Below, piece after piece: positions 6,592-46,885 of a DNA stretch of 64,000 nucleotides. Each line of letters opens with the position of its first letter. Within the stretch, counting starts at the first letter, position 1. This DNA comes from Bacillota bacterium (lineage in GTDB: Bacteria; Bacillota_I; Bacilli_A; RFN20; CAG-288), in the NCBI GenBank assembly GCA_023459795.1, contig JAEWSP010000018.1, forward strand, positions 30,946 through 94,945, written 5' to 3'. Both the position numbers and the translations under genes were made by a program. The notes below the pieces were generated by a model. It saw only the letters and a program-made list of their open reading frames with translations, did no database searches and was not told where the DNA came from.

Positions 6592-7314
6592 ATGAGGTTA
6601 GATCGGTTTCTGGCAATCCACGGCTTCGGTTCCAGGAAGTCGGCAAAGAAGATGGTCCATAACGGGCATGTCATGGTAAACGGAGAGAAGACGCTCCTTA
6701 ACGACATGCAGATTTCCGGTACCGATAAGATCACGGTCGACGGAAAGGACGTCGAGAACGTTCCTTTCGTCTGCCTGGTCCTGAACAAGCCCCAGAACTA
6801 TGTCTGTTCCATGCTGGACGACCACTACCCGTCCTGCATGAAGCTGATTCCGGACGAATACCAGAAAAGGGTCCGGATGGTGGGAAGGCTTGATGCCGAC
6901 ACGACAGGACTCTTGATCTTCACGGACAACGGAGTCCTCAACTCCCGGCTTGCCAACCCGAAGTTCAAGGTCACCAAGACGTATGCCGTCGAAGTGAACC
7001 ATATCCTGAAGCCGGAGATGGTGGAAGAATTCCAGAAAGGAAATCTCGATATCGGCCAGGGAGACATCGCCGATTCTGCCGTTCTTGTGATCCAGGACGA
7101 ATACCATGCCGAAGTAACCGTCCACGAAGGCAAGTACCACGAGATAAAAAGACTGTTCGGCAAGTTCGGATACGATGTCATCAAACTGAAACGTCTCTCT
7201 CTAGGGCCGGTGAAGCTCGGGGATGTCGAAGAAGGGAAGTTTAGAAAGGTGAGCGAAGAGGAATACGAATCCCTGTTAGAAGCTACCCACCTTATCAAGG
7301 AGGATCAATTATGA
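6592..7314 (+). CDS. rRNA pseudouridine synthase, RsuA/RluB family
   Basis: 240 aa. N-terminal S4 domain (MRLDRFLA..G.GSRK.A..V..G.V.VNG) and catalytic motif GRLDADTTGLLIFTDNG. Confidence 0.85.
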   Translation: MRLDRFLAIHGFGSRKSAKKMVHNGHVMVNGEKTLLNDMQISGTDKITVDGKDVENVPFVCLVLNKPQNYVCSMLDDHYPSCMKLIPDEYQKRVRMVGRLDADTTGLLIFTDNGVLNSRLANPKFKVTKTYAVEVNHILKPEMVEEFQKGNLDIGQGDIADSAVLVIQDEYHAEVTVHEGKYHEIKRLFGKFGYDVIKLKRLSLGPVKLGDVEEGKFRKVSEEEYESLLEATHLIKEDQL

Positions 7315-7829
7315 ATACTCTCTGCCCGAAATGCGGAAAGGACAATACTTCCACCTTTGTGGATACGAAGCTGAAGACACATGGTTTCTTCTGCGAAGAC
7401 TGCAAGAAGGATTTCGGTGTCGATGACGGCACTGCTTTGAAGAAGAAGGAAGAAGACCTTCTTTCTTTCACATATGACCGGTCCCATGACGGAGAGAAGA
7501 AGACTTTCCGCCTAGTAAGGGATGCAGGCAAGGCAACCCTAACTATCGAAACGGAGAAGGACAAGAAGCGGGACGTATATGAACCTATCGACTTCACTCC
7601 TTATGTCGATTCCTTCCTCTCCCTGCTCTTCGAGAAGCTCTTTGTTTTGGACTGGCCTGAGACAACCAACGGTTTCCTTGTCGGGAAGGATCCCGATACC
7701 TGCACTCTTACCCTCCTATTCAAGGATAAAAGCAGCGTCAGGAAGTCCGGTTTCGTCCGCCTTCCTGTCTACAGCAAGGCACTGGACGAGATCCTCGATT
7801 CCCTTCTCTCCAGCACGAAGGAGGAGTAG
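7311..7829 (+). CDS. hypothetical protein with N-terminal zinc ribbon
   Basis: 172 aa with CPKCG...CEDC. Its ATGA start overlaps the upstream stop, suggesting translational coupling. Confidence 0.55.
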   Translation: MNTLCPKCGKDNTSTFVDTKLKTHGFFCEDCKKDFGVDDGTALKKKEEDLLSFTYDRSHDGEKKTFRLVRDAGKATLTIETEKDKKRDVYEPIDFTPYVDSFLSLLFEKLFVLDWPETTNGFLVGKDPDTCTLTLLFKDKSSVRKSGFVRLPVYSKALDEILDSLLSSTKEE

Positions 7830-8207
7830 ATGAGAACCGACTTCACGAAGATCTCCTTCTGGAAAAGGAATCCGGACAATGTTGCGGATATCCTGAGGCT
7901 GGAGATCGAATGCCTCGTCGACAAGACTTACCTTCTGAACGTAAACGGAAAAGACCGTTCCCTTCCCAAAGAGGAAGGAGACAAGCTTATAGAAGGTCTT
8001 ATTGCTCTGAAGCTGGGCGAGACGAAGAAGGAAGAGAAAGCCTACCTATACGAAGACAGGCCTCAGGACTACCGGATCAAGTTCTTCCTGGTCTTCTCCT
8101 ATCCGGAAGCCACTTATCTAGCCGTAAAGGGAATCGATCCCTTCGGCCAGAAGAACTACAAGGAGATCCAGGCTCTCTTTGCTCCGCTGTTCAAGAAACA
8201 AGACTGA
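7830..8207 (+). CDS. hypothetical protein
   Basis: 125 aa. The ATG directly abuts the upstream TAG. A strong terminator follows. Confidence 0.5.
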   Translation: MRTDFTKISFWKRNPDNVADILRLEIECLVDKTYLLNVNGKDRSLPKEEGDKLIEGLIALKLGETKKEEKAYLYEDRPQDYRIKFFLVFSYPEATYLAVKGIDPFGQKNYKEIQALFAPLFKKQD

Positions 8208-8240
8208 AAGAGGAAGCCCCCAGAAGGCTTCCTCTTTTTC
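8208..8240 (+). terminator. intrinsic terminator of the rsuA-like operon
   Basis: GAGGAAGCC-cccagaa-GGCTTCCTC followed by TTTTT. Confidence 0.8.
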
Positions 8241-8248
8241 AAGGCATT

Positions 8249-8289
8249 AAAAAGAGCCCGGTTACTTGATTCAACAATCAAGGCCGGGC
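8249..8289 (-). terminator. intrinsic terminator for a minus-strand transcript
   Basis: Minus strand reads GCCCGG-cc-TTGATTG-ttg-AATCAAG-taa-CCGGGC then UCUUUUU. It stands back-to-back with the plus-strand terminator. Confidence 0.75.
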
Positions 8290-8351
8290 CCTAACGTATC
8301 TGACCCATGGGTTGTTCCATATCTTGCCGCCCCTTCACCGCGGTTTCCGAA

Positions 8352-8572
8352 TCATCCCGGATCGTATCGCGGTCCCTTCTCGTATCGCCATATTTGCTCA
8401 TATCTCAGTCCCGAACCGTATCGCCGTATCTTAACGAATCGCCTTACCTGATCGTACCTCCGTATCGAATCATATCGCCGTACCTTATCGAATCGCCTCG
8501 TAGAATCTAACCGTATCGCCATCCCTTAACGTATCGCCGTATCGAATCGTACCTCCGTCTCTGCTCATATCG
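8352..8572 (-). repeat. 12 degenerate tandem copies of an 18-nt unit (minus strand consensus CGATAYGAT-NNG-ATA-CGG)
   Basis: Units were read directly: 8572-8555, 8554-8537, 8536-8519, 8518-8501, then a 5-nt insert CGAGG, then eight more units down to 8352. The pentamer TATCG occurs 10 times on the plus strand in this span. Confidence 0.85.
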
Positions 8573-9059
8573 TTGACTCGGCTAGTAACGGAACGTTGTC
8601 TCAAACCGTTTCGTACCGCCGTACCTTCTTGGCGAAACACCTTGCGTCCCGGACTTCGAGAAACTAAGACTCACTCATTGACTCGTCTTGCCTCGAAGCG
8701 ACGTAGCTCGTTCCGTCTTTCCGGTTCCACTCATCCGGAACCTTTCCGTATCTAAACAGTGCACTGGCTACTCGAAGACTGACCGGCTCGTCTTGCCTCC
8801 CGGATTTGTATCTCTGACCTTCTTCCCGTATTGCAGAGAAGACCTAAACCAGAGTGGGGATAACGCCTTTAGTCCCAGGAGAGCCGAAACAGCTAGCCTT
8901 CCCTTACCTGCTCGGATGGGTACCCGACGAAATAACATAGTCTCGAAGCGACTATATCATGGCCAATGATATACATATTGAGAGTATCCGACAAAAGGAG
9001 GAGATTATTGCATCCCTTCTAGAAATTTATAGATATTTGACTTCTAATAGGTTAACGAA

Positions 9060-9326
9060 TTAGAAGCTGTACTCAGAAGCTAACTTCTTGAAGCCGGCAA
9101 CTGCCAGATCTTCATCTGCTCCGTCGCAAACAATCTTGAGGGATTCCCCCTGGCTGATCGTCGAGATGGCGAAGACATTCATGATAGACTTGAGATCGCA
9201 CTCGTCACCATTCTCAAGAACCATCTTGATGTTGCACTTATGATGATTTGCTTCCTCTACCAGCTCTGCACTAGAGCGAGAAGAGAGACCATTCATGGCA
9301 TTCACTTTGATTTCGAATGTTTTCAT
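9060..9326 (-). CDS. HPr-family protein lacking the active-site His (Crh-like paralog)
   Basis: 88 aa with the HPr fold pattern. The canonical G-[IL]-H-A-R-P is replaced by G-L-S-S-R-S, while the regulatory serine motif K-S-I-M is retained. Confidence 0.75.
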   Translation of the reverse strand: MKTFEIKVNAMNGLSSRSSAELVEEANHHKCNIKMVLENGDECDLKSIMNVFAISTISQGESLKIVCDGADEDLAVAGFKKLASEYSF

Positions 9327-9350: not shown

Positions 9351-9379
9351 ATTATAGAGAATTTGGTAAGCGTTTACAA
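9351..9379 (-). promoter_or_regulatory. sigma-A-type promoter of the HPr-like gene
   Basis: On the minus strand: TTGTAA (9374-9379), a 17-nt spacer, and TATAAT (9351-9356). Confidence 0.6.
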
Positions 9380-11119: not shown

Positions 11120-12830
11120 ATGAACAAGAACAACGGGCGCCGTCTAATGGCCTTCCTCAACGACCATCTTGCCAAAGTAGGGAAAAAGTATCTCTCCGTC
11201 TTCGATGCCTTCGGAAAAGAGCCGGAGAGAATCAGCGAGAAGACGCTTCTTTCCATCGTGAAGAAGAACAGGAATACGGAATTCGGAAGGAAGCACCATC
11301 TCGACCAGATCCATTCCCTTTCCGACTACCGGAAGGAAGTCCCTGTTTCGGACTACGAAGACTATAGGGAAGCAATCCTTAGGATGCAGGACGGGGGAAA
11401 GGATGTCCTCTTCCAGGGAAAACCGGTCTACTATACGGATACTTCCGGATCGACGGGGAAGAGCAAACGGATTCCTATCTCTGCTACCCAGCAGAAGGCA
11501 ATGAAGAAGAAGAAAGGAAATCCTCAGATCATCCCCTATCTGGAGAAGAAGAACGGATGCTATGACAGGAACCACCGGAAGATCCTCGCCCTGATGGCGA
11601 ATGCCGACATCACCTATACGAAGGACCAAACCCCGATCGGGGATGTCGTCTCCCTGATGCTTTCCAAGGTCAGCGGATTGATGGGGCTCTTCTTTACCAC
11701 CCTTTGGCAAGCCTCACCTCGAACGAGATCCATGACCGCCTCTATGTCCACCTTCTCTTCGCGCTTCCGGAAACGGACATCTATCTCATCATGAGTGCCT
11801 ATCTCAGCGAAACCTGCGGAATGGTGAACTATCTCTTCCAGAACCAGGAACTCTGCTCCATGATCTTGCAGAAGGGAAAATATCGGACTGCGTAAAGCTT
11901 TCCCCCGCCCTAAAGAAGGAACTTGAAAAGAAGCTTGTCCCGCACCCGGAAAGGGCTGAGGAACTAAAAGAAATCCTGGCTTCCGGAAGAGACGGGATCC
12001 TGACCAGGATCTGGCCTAGCCTCACCGTCGTAAGCGGGGTCGGCAGTACAGAGAACAGGCTGCGCCCGTATACGCTTCTTGTAAAAAGGTATCTAGGAAG
12101 CAAAGGACATATTTATTATGCCGCCTATAATTCCTCGGAATCCTTGATGGGGCTGGCAACGGACTACGACACCTTCCTCTATGCACCGGTCCTGGATATG
12201 GCTTATCTGGAATTCCTTCCCCTCGATGAGAAGGAACAGCCGATCCCGGGGAAGATCCTTTCCGTATCCGAGCTTACGGACGGGGCAAAGTACGAGACTG
12301 TCCTGACCAGCCTCTCCGGTCTCTATCGTTATAGGATGGCAGACATCGTCAAGGTCAGCGGACGGAAAGGAAGGCTTCCTCTATTCGAAATCCTAGGACG
12401 GAACAAGGTCCTCCTCGATGTCATGGGAGAGAAATGCACCTTCCATCAGGCAGATGACGCGATTGCCCTCCTAGGAGAAAAGATCGGGGAGAAGGAACAT
12501 CCCATCTATGCCTACTGTGCCACGGAAGGGAATAAGGAAAACCGGTATACCTTCTTCCTGGAAATCAAGGATTCCTCTTCCCTGGATCCGAAGAAGACTT
12601 CTCTCCTTCTGAAGGATTCCCTAGCCCTTGCTTCCCCGGATATCCGGTATGCTTTCGAGGAGGAAGGGCTCCTTCCTCCCGAAGTCTTCTTCGTGAAGGA
12701 AGGGACTTTCCAAAAATACCTCCACAATGAGAACCGGGAAGGAGAAGAAACAAAGCACTCCATCAAGGAGATCAAAGTCCTGAGGACCGAAGAGCAGAAG
12801 AAGTTCTTCAGGGATCATATCGAAGGATAG
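11120..12830 (+). pseudogene. GH3-family (acyl-acid amido synthetase-like) gene interrupted by two -1 frameshifts
   Basis: The N-terminal part (11120-~11700) carries FGRKH...YRKEVPVSDYEDY...YTDTSGSTGKSKRIP. The GH3-like sequence continues in a second frame (~11700-11880) and a third frame (11880-12830). The three pieces together span about 570 codons. Confidence 0.7.
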
Positions 12831-12891
12831 GAAAAGAGGCGTCCCCTAGAGGATGCCTTTTTCTTGCCAATAAACAGTCTTCTCTTTTTTG

Positions 12892-13929
12892 TCAGTCTCT
12901 ATCCGGCAGTTTTCCCGGCGCTTTGGATATGCCTTCCAGATACGAGTCGAAGGACTCCTTCCTGAAAGCATCGATTGCAGCTTCCACTTCCGGGTCCAGA
13001 TCCTTTATCCGGCCTCTGCCGATTACAAGAGGATCGATATACCTCCTCTTGGAATAGACCTTGATCGTATGCTCCTTCTCCGTCTTTTGTTCTTTGACTT
13101 CGGTTAGGTTTGTGAACCATTCCCAGTTATTCTTTGTCTCTTGGTTACCTAGAATTTTCTTGATAACAACCTCTTCCGTAGAATAAAGGTCGTTTTCCGA
13201 AAGAACGGACAAGGAGAAAGCTCTCCTAATTCCTCTGGCCAGGGCCTCCATCCCGTACCTGTCTTCTGGAGTCACATATACTTTGGAGTTCTGTATGGTT
13301 GCAAGAGCAAACTTCCTGGCAAGCTCCTTAGAAGAAAAAGCAAGCTCTTCGACTCCGTCTTCGTTTACCGTAACGGAAAGATCCCGGTACATTGCTTCTA
13401 CTTCTTCTCTAGAGGCATGGGAATAGTTCAGGAAATTGGAGAGGGTGTATTCCAGCCTGTCGGCAGAAAGCCTGGGAGAATCGTTGTCTGCAATCGGATA
13501 GAGATGGTAGTTATCGACATCCTTGGTAGATAGTCCAAGCTTCATAAGCTCTTTCTGGATTACGGGATCTTCTTCGATGATGCAGGTTGTCCTCTCCTCC
13601 GTTGCTTCCTGGGTAAGGTAATCCCCTTTTACGAAGTCGACGACGTGGGCAAAGGCCGGGGTTGCTATATCATGGAACAGACCGGAAAGGCTCTCCTTCT
13701 GATTCTTCCGGAAGTGATAGACGATTAGAGCAACTCCTAGAGAGTGGACGAACCTGGAATAAGGTTCGAAATCCTTATAGAACGGGAAGGAGGTATATTC
13801 CATTCCGCAGTGCATCCCGACATGCTTTATCCGTTCCAGGGAAGGAGCAGGAAGGAAGCCTTCCAGAAAGGAAGGGATATCCTTGCTGTAAAGAGAAAAC
13901 AGGAACTGCTCTTTTTCTATGTGGGACAT
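12892..13929 (-). CDS. HD-domain phosphohydrolase family protein
   Basis: 345 aa with H...HD pattern (HSLGVALIV...LFHDIATPAFAH). Confidence 0.65.
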   Translation of the reverse strand: MSHIEKEQFLFSLYSKDIPSFLEGFLPAPSLERIKHVGMHCGMEYTSFPFYKDFEPYSRFVHSLGVALIVYHFRKNQKESLSGLFHDIATPAFAHVVDFVKGDYLTQEATEERTTCIIEEDPVIQKELMKLGLSTKDVDNYHLYPIADNDSPRLSADRLEYTLSNFLNYSHASREEVEAMYRDLSVTVNEDGVEELAFSSKELARKFALATIQNSKVYVTPEDRYGMEALARGIRRAFSLSVLSENDLYSTEEVVIKKILGNQETKNNWEWFTNLTEVKEQKTEKEHTIKVYSKRRYIDPLVIGRGRIKDLDPEVEAAIDAFRKESFDSYLEGISKAPGKLPDRD

Positions 13930-14017
13930 GTTTTTTCCTCTGTTAAAAGACCATTATAGCAAAGAAGAGCAACGGAAATGAGGTTGCCCTTGCCCCTCCC
14001 TTTTTGTATAATAGATT

Positions 14018-14100
14018 CACCATCGCGGTGTATACCGTCGAACTTGGTCAGGACCGGAAGGTAGCAGCCATAAGATCGGTGTCCACGTGCGGTGGCTTTT
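14018..14100 (+). ncRNA. ffs: small (4.5S-type) signal recognition particle RNA
   Basis: Conserved domain IV core GGTCAGGACCGGAAGGTAGCAGCC. The closing helix pairs CCATCGCG with CGTGCGGTGG. TATAAT lies at 14007-14012 and a T-run at 14097-14102. Confidence 0.8.
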
Positions 14101-14111
14101 TTATTAAAAGA

Positions 14112-39483: not shown

Positions 39484-39559
39484 GGATCTTTAGCTCAGTT
39501 GGTAGAGCAACTGACCCTTAATCAGTGGGCCAAGGGTTCGAGTCCCTTAAGATCCACCA
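39484..39559 (+). tRNA. tRNA-Lys (anticodon CTT) with encoded CCA
   Basis: Hand-folded cloverleaf. Acceptor GGATCTT/AAGATCC, D arm GCTC/GAGC, anticodon stem ACTGA/TCAGT with loop CCCTTAA, T arm AAGGG-TTCGAGT-CCCTT, discriminator A. Confidence 0.85.
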
Positions 39560-41816: not shown

Positions 41817-42348
41817 GAAGAAGTACTGCTATGTCTGCGAAGGCAAGACAGACGAAGACAGGCTGAAGAAAGCCGGTTGTCTGTTTGTCGTTGTCTCCGG
41901 CGGAAAATTCATCCGCCCGGAGATTTTGTCCTTCCTGTCTCTGGTCTCCAAGAAGCGGAATATAGTTCTTGTCACGGATCCGGATACACCCGGAGATATG
42001 ATCCGGAAGAAGATTGAATCCGTTGTCGGCCCATGCATTAATCTTCACGGGAAGAAGGAACAGGCAACTTATAACGGAAAGCTTGGGATTGCAGAGATGA
42101 GGCAGACCTCTGTAGATGCTCTCCTTGCTTCTTGCATAGAGCATGACAAAGCCATTGAGGAAGAGAGCGGATTCAGCCATGACGACTACCTGGATATGGG
42201 ACTAGAAGGTCTGGGAAGCAAGGAGAGAAGAGAAAGACTTATCAAGAAGTACAGCCTACCTCTTGCTTCCGGTAAGAGCGTCGAAGAAGAATGCCATATC
42301 CTTTCCTTGACCAAGGAAGAGATAAAGGAGGCAATTGCACATGAGTGA
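41806..42348 (+). CDS. rnmV: ribonuclease M5
   Basis: Toprim pattern VCEGKTD...VTDPDTPGDMIRKKI. Its position between tatD and rsmA matches Bacillus. Confidence 0.8.
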   Translation: MDYEKKYCYVCEGKTDEDRLKKAGCLFVVVSGGKFIRPEILSFLSLVSKKRNIVLVTDPDTPGDMIRKKIESVVGPCINLHGKKEQATYNGKLGIAEMRQTSVDALLASCIEHDKAIEEESGFSHDDYLDMGLEGLGSKERRERLIKKYSLPLASGKSVEEECHILSLTKEEIKEAIAHE

Positions 42349-43159
42349 GCAGGATAGAATCCAAGGACTGTTGAAGGAATACGGCTATATCGCCAAGAAG
42401 TCCTTCGGACAGAATTTCCTTATCAACGAAGGAATCATAAGAAGAATCGTCGACCAGATGAAGCCGGAGACTTTCGAGACCGTAATCGAGATCGGTCCTG
42501 GCCTTGGAGCACTGACTCTTCCTCTTTCCCAGAAGAGCAAAAAGCTTTATGCCGTCGATGCAGACAGGGATATGATCACTATCCTCCATGAGATCTTCGA
42601 TTCCAAGAAGAATGTCACCTTGGTCCAGTCCGATTTCCTCCGCTTCGATCCGGACTCTGTCTCCCGGAAGGAAGATAGGCTGCTCATTGGGAACCTTCCT
42701 TACAACATCACTTCCGAGCTTTTTGAATATATGCTTGAAAAAGGGTTTGCTTCTGCCGGTGCCATGGTCCAGAAGGAAGTCTATGAGAAGCTAAGCTATA
42801 CCCCGGGGAAGTCAACCAACACTGCTCTAGGAGCTTTTATCGAAAGCATGGGAAAGCTCTCCCTGCTGACACTTGTCGACCACTCCTCCTTCGATCCTTC
42901 CCCGAAGGTGGAGTCCGCCTTCGTAAGGATTGATACGGATCCGAAGAAGTCGATTTCCTTCTCCCTCTATCCTGTCTATAAGGCACTCTTCCGGAATCCG
43001 AACAAGACCATCCACAACTGCCTCAAGGAGGTGCCGGAATATAGGGACTCCCTTCCTACGCTAAGCCAGGAAAAGCCGGAGCTTCTTTCTTCCAGGGCAC
43101 GGCAACTGGACGTGAAGACACTGCAAAAACTAGCCGAAGAAATCCAGAAGCTTTCCTAG
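42335..43159 (+). CDS. rsmA: 16S rRNA (adenine1518/1519-N6)-dimethyltransferase
   Basis: KKSFGQNFL motif, SAM-binding EIGPGLGALT, and NLPYNI. Confidence 0.9.
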   Translation: MHMSEQDRIQGLLKEYGYIAKKSFGQNFLINEGIIRRIVDQMKPETFETVIEIGPGLGALTLPLSQKSKKLYAVDADRDMITILHEIFDSKKNVTLVQSDFLRFDPDSVSRKEDRLLIGNLPYNITSELFEYMLEKGFASAGAMVQKEVYEKLSYTPGKSTNTALGAFIESMGKLSLLTLVDHSSFDPSPKVESAFVRIDTDPKKSISFSLYPVYKALFRNPNKTIHNCLKEVPEYRDSLPTLSQEKPELLSSRARQLDVKTLQKLAEEIQKLS

Positions 43160-43364
43160 AACTGTTTTTAGGCGCCAAAGGGAATTAATTTTACCGAAAA
43201 AACCAGTTTCAAAACATTTCCTAACCCTTGGGGATGGTTACTACAGCAAAACAGGGTTGCCTTTGTCGGGAATGACTCTACCCAGTTCGCTTTAAATAAG
43301 CTTGAGTAGCCCATTCCATCTTCGGAAATATGTAGATGATTATACTACTCACCTACCAAGAAAA

Positions 43365-44255
43365 CTAATTAAGGAACTTTTCGCAGTTAAATATATTTTC
43401 TTCATAACTTTGTGTTAACCGGTCTTTCATCTCACCCTCTGTAACTTTTCCGTATTTTCTTTCATAAAGAGAAATTATAGAGGTCATTATTGGAGCGGAG
43501 AAACTTGTCCCACTCTTTTCATTAATAACGATTCCATTCTCACATTCGTCTAAACAGATTATATCTAAGCAGGGTAAAAGAAAACAAGAGGAGTTAAAGT
43601 TTGCTTTTTTCCAAACGTTACATTCCTTATCTATTCCTGAAACAGCAATGACATTTCCATACGCGGCCGGGTACAACAAACTATCTGTTCCGGAATTTCC
43701 GGAACTGGCAACAACAATAATTCCTTTGCTTATGCATCTATCGATGGCAGCCCTAATCAAGCCGGAATCGTTCTTTATTCCTAAAGAAATATTGACTATA
43801 TCAATGCCATATTCACAACAACAATACAATGCGGATTCAACTTCTTGAATAGAGGCAATATTATCTTTACCCTCAACATCAAAAATGTAGATATCAGAAC
43901 AACAAGCCAAACCCAAATTATTGTATTCGGAGCAACCAATTATTGAAAATGTACTTAATCCGTGACTGGAATGTTGCTTACGCTCAACAGTGTTGTTAAA
44001 AACAATGTTTTGATTATGATAAACCGAGTTTTGAATTCCGGAATCTAGGACAGCAATTTTCGGAAAATACACAGCTTTTTCGTTACCTTTGGATAAGTTT
44101 ATTTCTTGCAAATAGTAGGCATTGTAGGGGATACTATTACGGTTTTTTGTTAAGCAGAAAAAGAAAGTACAAAAAACAAGCAGACCGGTTACAAGCTTAT
44201 GCCTTCGCATCTTTTTGATTTTCCGGACCCTGCTTTGCCTTATACGCTTGGACAA
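43365..44255 (-). CDS. membrane-anchored subtilisin-like serine protease (peptidase S8), Cys-rich
   Basis: Catalytic triad contexts AVLDSG (Asp), HGLSTFS (His) and SGTSFSAP (Ser). It has an N-terminal basic stretch plus a TM anchor. Local GC is low. Confidence 0.75.
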   Translation of the reverse strand: MSKRIRQSRVRKIKKMRRHKLVTGLLVFCTFFFCLTKNRNSIPYNAYYLQEINLSKGNEKAVYFPKIAVLDSGIQNSVYHNQNIVFNNTVERKQHSSHGLSTFSIIGCSEYNNLGLACCSDIYIFDVEGKDNIASIQEVESALYCCCEYGIDIVNISLGIKNDSGLIRAAIDRCISKGIIVVASSGNSGTDSLLYPAAYGNVIAVSGIDKECNVWKKANFNSSCFLLPCLDIICLDECENGIVINEKSGTSFSAPIMTSIISLYERKYGKVTEGEMKDRLTQSYEENIFNCEKFLN

Positions 44256-44697
44256 ACTTCTTCTTTTTCCGGTATTCGAAAAGAAGAATGATAAAGATAG
44301 CTAATACCGATACGATTTCGACGATATAGCCGGTAACGGAAGAAACGAAGAAGTAGACAAGAGTAAAACTAATCCCTGCCACTACAAAGAAAAAACTGAA
44401 AAGAACGAATCCGTTATTAAAAAGATTCGGATAAGAAAAACTCAGATGGGCATCCTTATTGGATATTTCTTTTGTCGGATACTTTTCTTCTTCTGGCTTC
44501 CCTTTGGAAAAGAAACCAAGTTCAAAGAAGAAGTCTTCATAGCCATAACCAAGAAAGGCAGGAAGGCATAGAATCAGGCTTTTTCCAAAGTACTCCAAAG
44601 ATAAGAACTTTGTGTTTTCCAAGGTAAAACCGTAAACGAGGATTGCCAGGACTACGAATATAGGAGTACAAATCAAACGAAGTTGCCATTTTTTCAT
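44197..44697 (-). CDS. hypothetical 4-TM membrane protein
   Basis: The start is probably MKKWQLRL. It overlaps both neighbouring genes, suggesting coupled translation. Low GC. Confidence 0.5.
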   Translation of the reverse strand: MKKWQLRLICTPIFVVLAILVYGFTLENTKFLSLEYFGKSLILCLPAFLGYGYEDFFFELGFFSKGKPEEEKYPTKEISNKDAHLSFSYPNLFNNGFVLFSFFFVVAGISFTLVYFFVSSVTGYIVEIVSVLAIFIILLFEYRKKKKFVQAYKAKQGPENQKDAKA

Positions 44698-44699
44698 TT

Positions 44700-45530
44700 T
44701 TATTGAAGTCCAAACGCAAACTGACGTTCCCACGAAAATGAGATTGAAATACCATCTTTAATAAAATGAGAATAGATATAGTCGAAAAGCTCAGATAAAC
44801 AAACAGAGACAAAAAAATTCACAACAAACCTTACTAATGCATGTTCGGATAAAACAGAGATAGCAGAAACGACAGCCAAAATGACAGGATTACCAGTAAC
44901 AGCTCCAAAAAGAGCTAAACTAGCCGCCATAACAATAGGCGTTCTGGTTGCCATAAACAATGCCGTAATTCCTTCAACAATAAACCCTGTCCCATAAGAG
45001 AGAATTTTTCTACAGGTGGAGGCATCAATCTTGAAAACAAATTGATCCGGAACATAAATTCCCCACCAAAGTTTTTTCCAAGTTAAATTGAAGGAATTTT
45101 CCCCTTCGCTTTCTTCTTCAAAACCAGAATACTTAATTAGTGCCGATTCATAGGCATCGATGATTGTGTTTTCTCCAACAAGTTCTGCTTCTTCAGCAGA
45201 AAGCCGGTTTTCCAAAGAAGCAATAACGTTTCTAGAAACATCCAAGAAATAGTTGGATCCTTTTTCATCACATTCAGCAAAGACATTATCCAAACTATTC
45301 TTTGCCTTGGAAATGTTAGATAAGATTTCCTTTCTTGACGCAGGTACTTCAATATCACTAATAGAAAGGTTGGAATAGCAGTCTTCAATTTTATCAAGTT
45401 GGTCCTGAACCTCTTCTTCTTTGGCTGAATTTATTCCAACATTAGTTGGACCTTTGGAATTCTTTCCAAAACATAAAAAACTACTCAATACAGTTATGAT
45501 AGTCAATGCTTTTTTTAATGGCACTTGCAT
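44700..45530 (-). CDS. hypothetical secreted/membrane protein: signal peptide, helical acidic ectodomain, Gly/Ala-rich C-terminal TM helices
   Basis: The start is probably MQVPLKKALTIITVL. The C-terminus reads GITALFMATRTPIVMAASLALFGAVTGNPVILAVVSAISVL. Low GC. Confidence 0.5.
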   Translation of the reverse strand: MQVPLKKALTIITVLSSFLCFGKNSKGPTNVGINSAKEEEVQDQLDKIEDCYSNLSISDIEVPASRKEILSNISKAKNSLDNVFAECDEKGSNYFLDVSRNVIASLENRLSAEEAELVGENTIIDAYESALIKYSGFEEESEGENSFNLTWKKLWWGIYVPDQFVFKIDASTCRKILSYGTGFIVEGITALFMATRTPIVMAASLALFGAVTGNPVILAVVSAISVLSEHALVRFVVNFFVSVCLSELFDYIYSHFIKDGISISFSWERQFAFGLQ

Positions 45531-45979
45531 ATTTTTTGCCTCGTTGATAATCATAGTGTGTAGATAACTTAAAGTCAATATCGTGTTTTTTGATTACACC
45601 ACTTTTTTGTTCTTGTTATAAATTGTTTTCTAACACAACTGTTTTTTTATAAGAATCGTCTTTGCTTTGTGTTGCACCATGAGAGCAATTGTAAAGCTCC
45701 TCTTTTGGCTTCAAATGCTTTTCTGAGTTTTGCCCCCAAGAAATTTTGCGGTCTGAAAAGAAGCATATGCTGAACATTTTTCGTCAAAAGCTCTAGACAA
45801 AAACAGATTTGCTTTGGAAAGGGCATTCCGCGAACCATTTTCAAAAAGCAACGTCAATTCCAAAACTTAGATGCCAAAAACTTTCTAAGCTCGTCTTCTA
45901 ATTGCTTCTAATTCATTTGAACGCTTTTGCAACCGCCCCTTCATAAACAACCATTTCCGCTCTTTCCAGTAGCTGCGGC

Positions 45980-46885
45980 TTATTCTTCTTTCTTGTTGTT
46001 CTTCTCTGTTTCTTTTTCTTCTTTCTTCTCCTGCTTATGCTTCTGATGCTCTTTGTAGAAATCCTGATCGATCCAGAGGATCCGTTCCGAGAACTCCGGA
46101 TATTTCTTGAATACGAAATAGCTGGAGAGGATGCCGAGAAGCGCACCGCAGGCATCGGCAATGATGTCTCCGTCCGTATCCGTAACAGCATACCTATAGC
46201 CTGTAAATGTCTTGTAGTAATTCGTCATATCCGTCTCGCTGAGGTGGCAGTTCCCCGTATTCCACATCTCTCCGTTTGCTCCCCCGAGAATCCCCGTATC
46301 CTGATCGATGCAGGCATAAAGATCGTCCGGAATATATTTCTGCATGTTCGTATGGAAGATCAGGTCTGCTCCGCCTTCATACAGTTCCCACAAGGCTTCG
46401 ACGGCAACTCCGAAGAAGAAGCCGAAGAGAAGGCATAAGCCGGTCGCTTGTCTTCCTGTATATCCGTTCTTCTTCATGAGAAGCTTCATCAAGACAAAGC
46501 CTGCCAGGGCAAGCTGTGCCGTTCCTATCGTATGGAGGAATTTATCGAATCCGTAATCCCCGAGGTTGTAGTAGACCTGGCAGGCTTCTCCGAGGAAGAC
46601 GGAGACGAAGAGGTCAAAGGCGATGAACAGATCCACTGGCTTTCCGACACGGAAACCAGTCAGATGTTCGACAATCATCGGTCCCCAGATACCTAGGAAT
46701 GCGCAGGAAGACCCGACGATAACCGTCCTTGCCTGGACCGGATCCCACTGGAAAGGACGATGGGTAGCAATGCCGCCTTCCGGATAGAACGGCCTTACCT
46801 TGCAAAGGGATAGGATTGCAAAGACCATGAGCATGGAGAAAACAGAGGTTTCAATGATATACAGGGTCTTTCGGTAAGATGCCAT
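45980..46885 (-). CDS. hypothetical polytopic membrane protein with Lys/Glu-rich tail
   Basis: 301 aa with about 6 TM segments; GC is back at core level. Confidence 0.5.
   Translation of the reverse strand: MASYRKTLYIIETSVFSMLMVFAILSLCKVRPFYPEGGIATHRPFQWDPVQARTVIVGSSCAFLGIWGPMIVEHLTGFRVGKPVDLFIAFDLFVSVFLGEACQVYYNLGDYGFDKFLHTIGTAQLALAGFVLMKLLMKKNGYTGRQATGLCLLFGFFFGVAVEALWELYEGGADLIFHTNMQKYIPDDLYACIDQDTGILGGANGEMWNTGNCHLSETDMTNYYKTFTGYRYAVTDTDGDIIADACGALLGILSSYFVFKKYPEFSERILWIDQDFYKEHQKHKQEKKEEKETEKNNKKEE

Follow-up and report, generated by a model that had tools for sequence, protein, structure and literature searches.

A candidate non-coding RNA element with a short-motif array downstream of a Crh-like HPr gene in uncultured Bacilli

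Several regulatory RNAs of bacteria carry many one-strand copies of one short motif, including CsrB and RsmZ (CsrA) and CrcZ (Hfq/Crc), the last of which is tied to catabolite control. In these RNAs the copy number and the spacing of the motif vary and the sequence between the motifs drifts, with the ends and the terminator conserved. Arrays of (G/U)AG triplets for TRAP are found in the trp leaders of Bacillus. RsaC of Staphylococcus aureus derives from the mntABC transcript, from which it is released, and repeats make its length differ between isolates. Only few families of large non-coding RNAs are known from bacteria, and each of them opened new biology. Here we describe an element which shares the above properties of CsrB, RsmZ and CrcZ. 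It was found in a stretch of 64,000 nt (64 kb, hereafter the window) of contig JAEWSP010000018.1 from an uncultured Bacillota bacterium. The minus strand of the window at 8249-9059, 3' of a gene for a Crh-like HPr, very probably represents a conserved non-coding RNA element that has not been described before. The first-pass annotation had proposed a non-coding minus-strand transcript here, either an independent RNA or a long 3' untranslated region (UTR) of the HPr gene, and the comparative data support this proposal.

The layout of the element is unusual, in that conserved 'handles' surround a fast-evolving array of a 5-6-nt motif and the whole is fixed to a Crh-like HPr gene with a cre-bearing promoter. 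The predicted RNA family is new and of a broadly known kind. Like RsaC, the element lies 3' of a coding gene, spans hundreds of nt and shows repeat-driven length variation between strains and species. There is, however, no sequence relationship to RsaC, the repeat type and the host gene differ, and processing of the element is putative. For the whole statement, which joins a new non-coding RNA element to co-transcription and to a decoy or scaffold mechanism, we consider the case evenly balanced.

Conservation and structured ends of the element

Aligned to Mycoplasma HPr, the HPr-like protein shows GLSSRSS in place of GLHARPA and retains LKSIMNV. Lacking His15 but carrying the Ser46 site, it resembles Crh. 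Its relatives are many (50-80% identity) and come from metagenome-assembled genomes labelled 'Bacilli bacterium'. A scan of one genome per species yielded 47 loci from uncultured Bacilli, including Candidatus Enterosoma. Reading of the gaps revealed the element in ~40 of the 47 loci, right after HPr and on the same strand, with a length of ~180-970 nt. The minus strand of the window, used as nhmmer query, gave ~700-nt matches just after HPr and on the same strand in nine loci, and a 26-nt core was 100% identical in many further loci. Synteny is kept in the relatives, with a divergent TrpRS gene, HPr, the gap and the convergent genes for the 125-aa, 172-aa and RluB proteins. The loci furthest from the window (L050, L061, L063-L068) do not have the element, and their HPr also lacks His15. 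Linkage to HPr is strict: among 90 matches of a metagenome scan with the core of hairpin P1 (Table 1), the ~15 with other family features all lie directly downstream of HPr, and the remaining ~75 are chance matches inside unrelated sequence. Two viral matches to the P1 core were likewise discarded as chance, without the AGUCG extension. Ten metagenome contigs of the window's species carry identical HPr and 125-aa proteins and the same gap, and are near-identical apart from indels in the array described below. The body of the element is unalignable even with the closest species (L125, HPr 80% identical).

At its 3' end the element closes with a two-tier intrinsic terminator, which lies eight bases past the terminator of the convergent operon. 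From 8291 to 8249 the minus strand reads GGGCCCGG-CC-UUGAU-UGUUGA-AUCAA-GUAA-CCGGGCUC-U5. A simple terminator scan missed this hairpin because it is two-tier. The leftward terminator that had been annotated at 8249-8289 is read directly in the sequence, and a covariance model built from 19 relatives matches it at 8248-8300 (minus strand) with 62.5 bits (E 1e-15). Among the 19 sequences 95.5% of the cells are paired and 10 of the 13 pairs are changed on both sides, a level of covariation reached by 0 of 500 shuffles; slid controls are 17-52% paired. The UGUUGA loop is present in 17 of the 19 aligned sequences, and the other two (L026, L036) have UGUUUA. Each family locus gives one strong match to the model (44-74 bits), always at the 3' end of the element and on the strand of HPr. 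With the antisense strand of this site the model gives 15-29 bits, ~40 bits lower than with the sense strand, and in ~50 unrelated control loci nothing exceeded ~21 bits. The G+C-rich hairpin, the U-run and the covarying stems that mark a Rho-independent terminator are thus all found.

The 5' end is formed by hairpins P0 and P1. In P0 the final HPr codons together with the stop form the outer arm GCUUCUAA, which pairs with the conserved UUAGAAG, and UC is next. An equivalent is found in at least 12 relatives, with the outer arm again taken from the last HPr codons and a species-specific inner stem. The P1 block occurs a single time in the window and is identical or nearly so in >30 loci. One pair of its stem is U-A, with U.G in >10 loci and C-G in L023 and L025, and in three loci (L054-L056) the GGCC loop is unchanged but is closed by another stem (UUCCAU/GUGGAA). 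The U.G variants argue for an RNA helix on the minus strand and not for a DNA palindrome. Many relatives carry a CCUCC-type box 10-25 nt upstream of P1 (read by eye), and most members a CCCUUUCU box 30-60 nt past it. Going by its position relative to P1, GGGUACCCAUCCGAG in the window would correspond to the relatives' CCCUUUC box. The A-rich/GGG run that precedes the terminator was considered as a long-range pairing partner of the CCCUUUC box; this was rejected, the run being better read as the A-tract of a bidirectional terminator. Across related genomes, position, strand and end structures are thus conserved in ~40 species-level loci.

Between the ends, conservation is limited to a few hairpins. 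A hairpin with a GCUGAG loop, absent from the window, is found in eight distinct members; 7 of its 7 pairs show compensatory changes and 96% of its cells are paired vs 58% in shuffles, counts to be read with the selection effect given below in mind. Compensatory changes are therefore seen in this hairpin as well as in the terminator. The palindromic hairpin that relatives have near the 3' end is in several members followed by a CAGAAGGGAG box. Palindromes of at least 10 nt are modestly enriched (35 vs 21.9±4.8), the counts being phylogenetically non-independent. The local features of the first-pass annotation were all found at the positions it gave: the hairpin at 8953-8973, GGTTCC/GGAACC at 8723-8742, the palindromes GGGTACCC (8918-8925) and ACCCATGGGT (8303-8312), and the exact repeats of 11 nt (8692-8702 and 8942-8952) and 13 nt (8682-8694 and 8787-8799), for which a rough estimate of the chance expectation in 750 nt is ~0.07 and ~0.004, respectively. 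Its nested hairpin (8654-8698) exists with 70% complementarity, and no counterpart was found in relatives. The 'dense structure' it saw holds for individual conserved hairpins; overall, the folding energy is not below that of shuffles.

Size, non-coding character, Bacillota host and hairpins with conserved loops (0.2-1 kb in the case of the element) recall OLE, ROOL and GOLLD, and self-complementary loops or tips (UGGCCA, CCAUGG) could, speculatively, allow RNA-RNA contacts as a further likeness. That the element belongs, in divergent form, to one of the known classes of large RNA (OLE, ROOL, GOLLD, HEARO/IscB omega-RNA or raiA) is nevertheless barely conceivable, as only size class and host speak for it. 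With Rfam 15 at gathering thresholds the window yields only a small SRP RNA (14017-14101, plus strand, 57 bits) and one tRNA (39484-39556, plus strand), both elsewhere. At E<=10 the region itself gives noise only, including for ROOL, GOLLD, OLE, HEARO and raiA. Nothing within the element was found in 18 related loci at gathering thresholds, and in 8 loci at E<=1 the only matches in the element were to ctRNA_p42d, on the terminator and with 24-26 bits vs a gathering score of 50. There was no blastn match in phage and plasmid collections, and the literature searched held no RNA of this kind. Unlike OLE, ROOL and GOLLD, the element has a fixed genomic context that is neither phage- nor tRNA-associated, no covariance-model match, no overall structure excess and an unconserved body. 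A conserved secondary structure that extends over most of the RNA was not found, as only the end modules and few hairpins covary. Of the likeness to large ornate RNAs that had been proposed, the size class stands, whereas the body is a fast-evolving repeat array and not a conserved intricate fold. The element thus consists of conserved end modules and, between them, a body of fast turnover that keeps its motif; it is not a fold of the OLE or GOLLD type.

The hexamer array and its interpretation

The dominant feature of the body, missed by the first-pass annotation, is an array of hexamers of the form G-R-K-A-Y-G. The element of the window has 24 of them vs 3.5±1.8 in dinucleotide shuffles, and 0 in antisense. 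Twenty-two of the 24 fall within one 400-nt span, the next-best 400-nt spans of the 64-kb window holding 4-6; the two outside the array are at 8747-8752 and 9011-9016. Spacing between the hexamers alternates between 8 and 10 nt, which gives the 18-nt period; with Tandem Repeats Finder, periods of both 18 and 54 are detected. Long members of the family (>~400 nt) contain 5-30 hexamers vs ~1-4 in shuffles, with the exception of L045, which has none. In relatives the motif is set in a 5-nt register: distances between copies peak at 5, 10, 15, 20, 25 and 30 nt (290, 221, 187, 152, 132 and 129 counts) vs 20-60 counts at other lags, and in-register pentamer runs reach 8-11 vs a shuffle maximum of 3-4. 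This strand-specific excess of a short motif, kept across relatives, is what would be expected of a multivalent protein-binding RNA.

GGA is not enriched in the element of the window (20 vs 24.9±3.2 in shuffles) or family-wide, which argues against a Csr/Rsm RNA. In contrast to CsrB, RsmZ and CrcZ, the motif is G-R-K-A-Y-G and neither GGA nor A-rich, the motifs are not predicted in hairpin loops, the element is attached to a protein gene, and no partner protein is known for it.

Between strains of the window's species the array has gained or lost 18, 108 and 113 nt, and it is therefore unstable. Short public contigs of related species (L161, L162, L165-L168) end within or just before the array, and so it appears to break short-read assemblies. 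These contigs were also considered as transcripts and rejected as genomic fragments that end inside the array. The instability and the assembly breaks would suit a DNA-level feature, that is a degenerate minisatellite or protein-binding array between convergent terminators with any RNA being functionless, as would the body that is unalignable even between closest species; moreover, repeats in the same orientation suit DNA binding as well as RNA binding. We regard this explanation as distinctly improbable in view of the conserved structured ends with their G.U pairs, the large gap between sense and antisense scores and the motif that is kept across species despite the turnover of the surrounding sequence. 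Nor was a GC-skew switch or another replication-related signal found at the locus; a dif site or replication terminus was ruled out in the absence of a skew switch.

Concerning a coding function, the minus strand at 8250-9000 has no open reading frame (ORF) of 60 aa or more, as the first-pass annotation had stated; the largest are of 56, 56 and 51 aa. A decayed protein gene, for instance for a hexapeptide-repeat protein with 18 nt as 6 codons, or small proteins might be read from the 18-nt period of the window, which is a multiple of 3, from the minus-strand ORFs of 56 and 51 aa with their RRYDxI-like repeats and from a 36-aa ORF that ends at the base of the terminator. Still, this is very improbable. 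No ORF is conserved in frame across members, and the clusters of similar ORFs mix frames and strands, as repeats do. The longest sense ORFs of the members range inconsistently from 23 to 138 aa, and no gene is called in the gap in the ten same-species contigs. The 5-nt register of the relatives is incompatible with a reading frame, and the 113-nt indel, not being a multiple of 3, likewise counts against coding. A possible short peptide encoded near the 3' end, which would finish with ..SSIG* in L060/L062 and with ..GQIR* in the window, was rejected, since it is not conserved across subgroups. The pseudogene that had been named as a possible outcome is thus contradicted by homologous loci without a conserved ORF.

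The strict 5-nt register of the relatives upstream of a terminator is like the TRAP arrays of the Bacillus trp leaders, and a triplet with a 2-nt spacer would fit. The invariant positions are, however, G1 and A4-Y5 and not the A-G of the (G/U)AG triplet, the arrays of the element are longer and multiple, and the window has a period of 18 nt without the 5-nt register. We know of no TRAP gene in this lineage. The 9-11 (G/U)AG triplets, 2-3 nt apart, and the terminator/antiterminator pair of a TRAP leader were not found; the units of the relatives are G-R-K-A-Y, and no antiterminator was identified. In 11 of 36 members a ~170-aa gene, to which no function is assigned, starts 25-60 nt past the terminator on the same strand (e.g. 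L023:4642-5154, L044:5087-5590, L051:5026-5550 and 8 other loci; motif ..ITRKDEQE..GYS..Y..LE.E.F.N..R.P). The other 25, including the window, have none within the retrieved sequence. The family gives no Pfam match, forms only 2 homologue clusters and is unrelated to the 125-aa and 172-aa proteins of the window, and an AlphaFold model of the protein was unusable (pLDDT 49).

These genes, together with the in-register runs of 8-11 pentamers in relatives, would agree with a present or past leader or attenuator, in which a repeat-bound protein decides terminator formation, as TRAP does at the trp leader, and which became an orphan in the window's species after gene loss. This explanation is improbable, as the 25 members without the gene keep the conserved ends, the window has a convergent gene next to the element, an alternative antiterminator structure was not identified and the window's copy lacks the 5-nt register. 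A repeat array, a terminator and a ~170-aa ORF in 11 relatives also recall ToxI-ToxN, a type III toxin-antitoxin system. Such systems have a toxin gene and ~34-36-nt repeats; the repeats of the element are short and degenerate instead of identical ~36-nt units, the window has a period of 18 nt and a convergent next gene, most members lack the ORF and the 170-aa proteins are without Pfam match.

Promoter, probable co-transcription and proposed function

The HPr gene has a sigma-70-type promoter, whose TATAAT is at the same position in most relatives and whose placement implies a 5' UTR of ~20 nt. A site resembling the cre consensus WTGNAANCGNWNNCW lies 45-53 nt before the ATG in ~43 of 48 loci at <=1 mismatch, 38 of them with 0 mismatches (44 loci scored, one of them off-position). 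The site overlaps a TTGTAA -35, and TATAAT follows 17 nt downstream. Taken alone the site of the window is not significant, as the 64-kb window contains 31 one-mismatch matches. The operator is also found at the HPr promoter of species without the RNA (L050, L061, L068). This distribution suggests a clade-wide CcpA-type autoregulation of the Crh-like protein. The position of the element behind a cre-bearing promoter is a likeness to CrcZ.

No conserved promoter was found between HPr and P1 in relatives, and in L062 the distance from the HPr stop codon to P1 is only 23 nt. A promoter candidate in the P1 region of the window (TTGTCG-17-TATCAT) was rejected, as it is not kept in L125 or other members. 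The cre-bearing HPr promoter, the spacer without conserved promoter and the stop codon within P0 together argue for co-transcription under catabolite control. In the simplest reading, there is probably one predicted cre-controlled transcript with a short leader, HPr and then the RNA element.

Some of this evidence would equally be expected of a purely cis-acting long 3' UTR, whose hairpins and CCUCC and CCCUUUCU boxes control the stability or translation of the HPr message without any trans-acting RNA. The strict HPr linkage, the stop codon inside P0 and the missing conserved internal promoter agree with it, and the pyrimidine boxes are complementary to the purine-rich ribosome-binding region of HPr, e.g. 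AAGAAAG in L047. However, this complementarity is generic to any Shine-Dalgarno sequence and weak in the window, a gene of 267 nt would hardly need an array of as much as 970 nt, and the array motif has no counterpart in the 5' region of HPr. We therefore consider a function restricted to the HPr message unlikely.

For the proposed RNA, we suggest the following course. The RNA would be made by read-through from the cre-bearing HPr promoter, and its expression would follow the carbon status via a CcpA-type regulator. At P0 the RNA may be processed or its end stabilised, and the end hairpins may protect the RNA or confer specificity. The hexamer array would be a multivalent platform for a protein that reads a 5-6-nt motif. 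By analogy to the known motif-array RNAs, the element may be a decoy or scaffold for such a hexamer-binding protein, an assignment that we make tentatively and with more doubt than confidence. The 5-nt register of the relatives suggests, again by analogy, a TRAP-like binding protein of ring or helical shape, and the self-complementary P1 loop UGGCCA might additionally allow RNA-RNA assembly. At its widest, the proposal is that of an RNA arm of a new catabolite-control circuit in uncultured, genome-reduced Bacilli, in which a cre/CcpA-controlled RNA is co-made with a Crh-like HPr and its arrays wrap or titrate an oligomeric RNA-binding protein. This we put forward as speculation that is rather unlikely to hold in full.

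Several observations speak against the proposed RNA or its mechanism. The longest run in 5-nt register in the window is 3, no more than in shuffles, and the predicted unpaired probability of the hexamers does not differ from that of the remaining RNA. Folded as a whole, the RNA reaches no lower energy than its shuffles do (z +0.74 for sense, +0.95 for antisense). The conserved-loop hairpins were chosen by their flanking stem, which inflates the covariation counts. Divergence within the species is too low, and too mosaic, to show purifying selection. In L022 a hairpin resembling a terminator separates HPr from P1, so co-transcription by read-through may be partial there. Finally, no protein that binds the hexamer is known or was found.

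The locus would connect carbon catabolite signalling with regulation by an RNA, a concrete link open to testing, in a little-known lineage of gut and anaerobic-digester Bacilli. The array is a defined bait for finding a new RNA-binding protein, and for annotation a covariance model can be started from P1 and the terminator.

Features of the locus and neighbouring genes

Table 1. Features of the element and its flanks in the window, listed by position
Feature	Position	Strand	Remarks
172-aa protein gene	7311-7829	+	convergent operon
125-aa hypothetical gene	7830-8207	+	final gene of the operon; the gene for an RluB-type pseudouridine synthase is in the same operon
Terminator of the convergent operon	8207-8241	+	perfect 12-bp hairpin and T-run; context, outside the RNA element
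Two-tier intrinsic terminator	8249-8291	-	UGUUGA loop, U5 tail; covariance and covariance model
Hexamer array G-R-K-A-Y-G	~8295-8650	-	mostly GAUACG/GGUACG; degenerate tandem array, 18-nt period
Palindromic hairpin ACCCAUGGGU	8303-8312	-	different palindrome here in several relatives (UGACCAUGGUCA, GACCUAGGUC, CUAGGCCUAG)
Nested hairpin	8654-8698	-	70% complementary; in minimum-energy fold; window-specific
Hairpin GGUUCC-GGAUGAGU-GGAACC	8723-8742	-	same loop with different stems in L125, L031, L024, L121
GGGUACCCAUCCGAG	8911-8925	-	putative divergent counterpart of the family CCCUUUCU box
P1 hairpin UAUAUCAU-UGGCC-AUGAUAUA and AGUCG	8949-8973	-	most conserved block of the family
CCUCC pyrimidine box	8997-9003	-	anti-Shine-Dalgarno-like; by eye, no statistical score
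P0 hairpin GCUUCUAAU...AUUAGAAGU, then conserved GAAGUC	9040-9067	-	covers the HPr stop codon
HPr-like (Crh-like) gene	9060-9326	-	88 aa (267 nt); His15 to Ser, Ser46 motif LKSIMNV kept
Sigma-70-type promoter TTGTAA-17-TATAAT	9351-9379	-	HPr/RNA unit; 10/12 matches
cre-type operator TTGTAAACGCTTACC	9365-9379	-	1 mismatch to WTGNAANCGNWNNCW; overlaps the -35

The gap between the two convergent genes comprises 852 nt (window 8208-9059). The plus-strand terminator placed at 8208-8240 by the earlier annotation was confirmed, with arms (8207-8218 and 8226-8237) that are 100% complementary and are followed by the T-run. The 172-aa protein has an N-terminal CxxC...CxxC zinc-ribbon-like segment, with sub-threshold Pfam matches alone (DpnI, Cys_rich_KTR and Zn-ribbon families). 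Compared with the adjacent 125-aa protein by hhalign it gave a weak, non-significant probability of 11%. The sole distant homologue of the 125-aa protein (49% identity; L021:2390-2752) is followed by a DUF234/AAA ATPase gene and has no HPr-RNA unit; the end of the L021 contig carries a copy of the 170-aa family gene.

On the other side of the element, two loci of the window's species (L003:4660-5640 and L006:4660-5640) have an added 326-aa ORF between TrpRS and the HPr promoter, which gives no Pfam match and is absent from the window and the remaining strains. A GH3-family gene beside TrpRS (window ~11120-12900; L001-L009) is a single call of 560-570 aa in some strains and is split in others (215+227, 258+227 or 127+372 aa); its first ORF in the window has 224 aa. 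A frameshift or variation of the gene between strains may be involved. The SRP RNA of the window has counterparts near the HPr locus in L024, L051, L053, L060, L062 and L121. Further away, at ~42000-46000 of the window, the G+C content falls to 0.40 vs ~0.48-0.51 elsewhere, and this stretch could be a foreign or AT-rich island.

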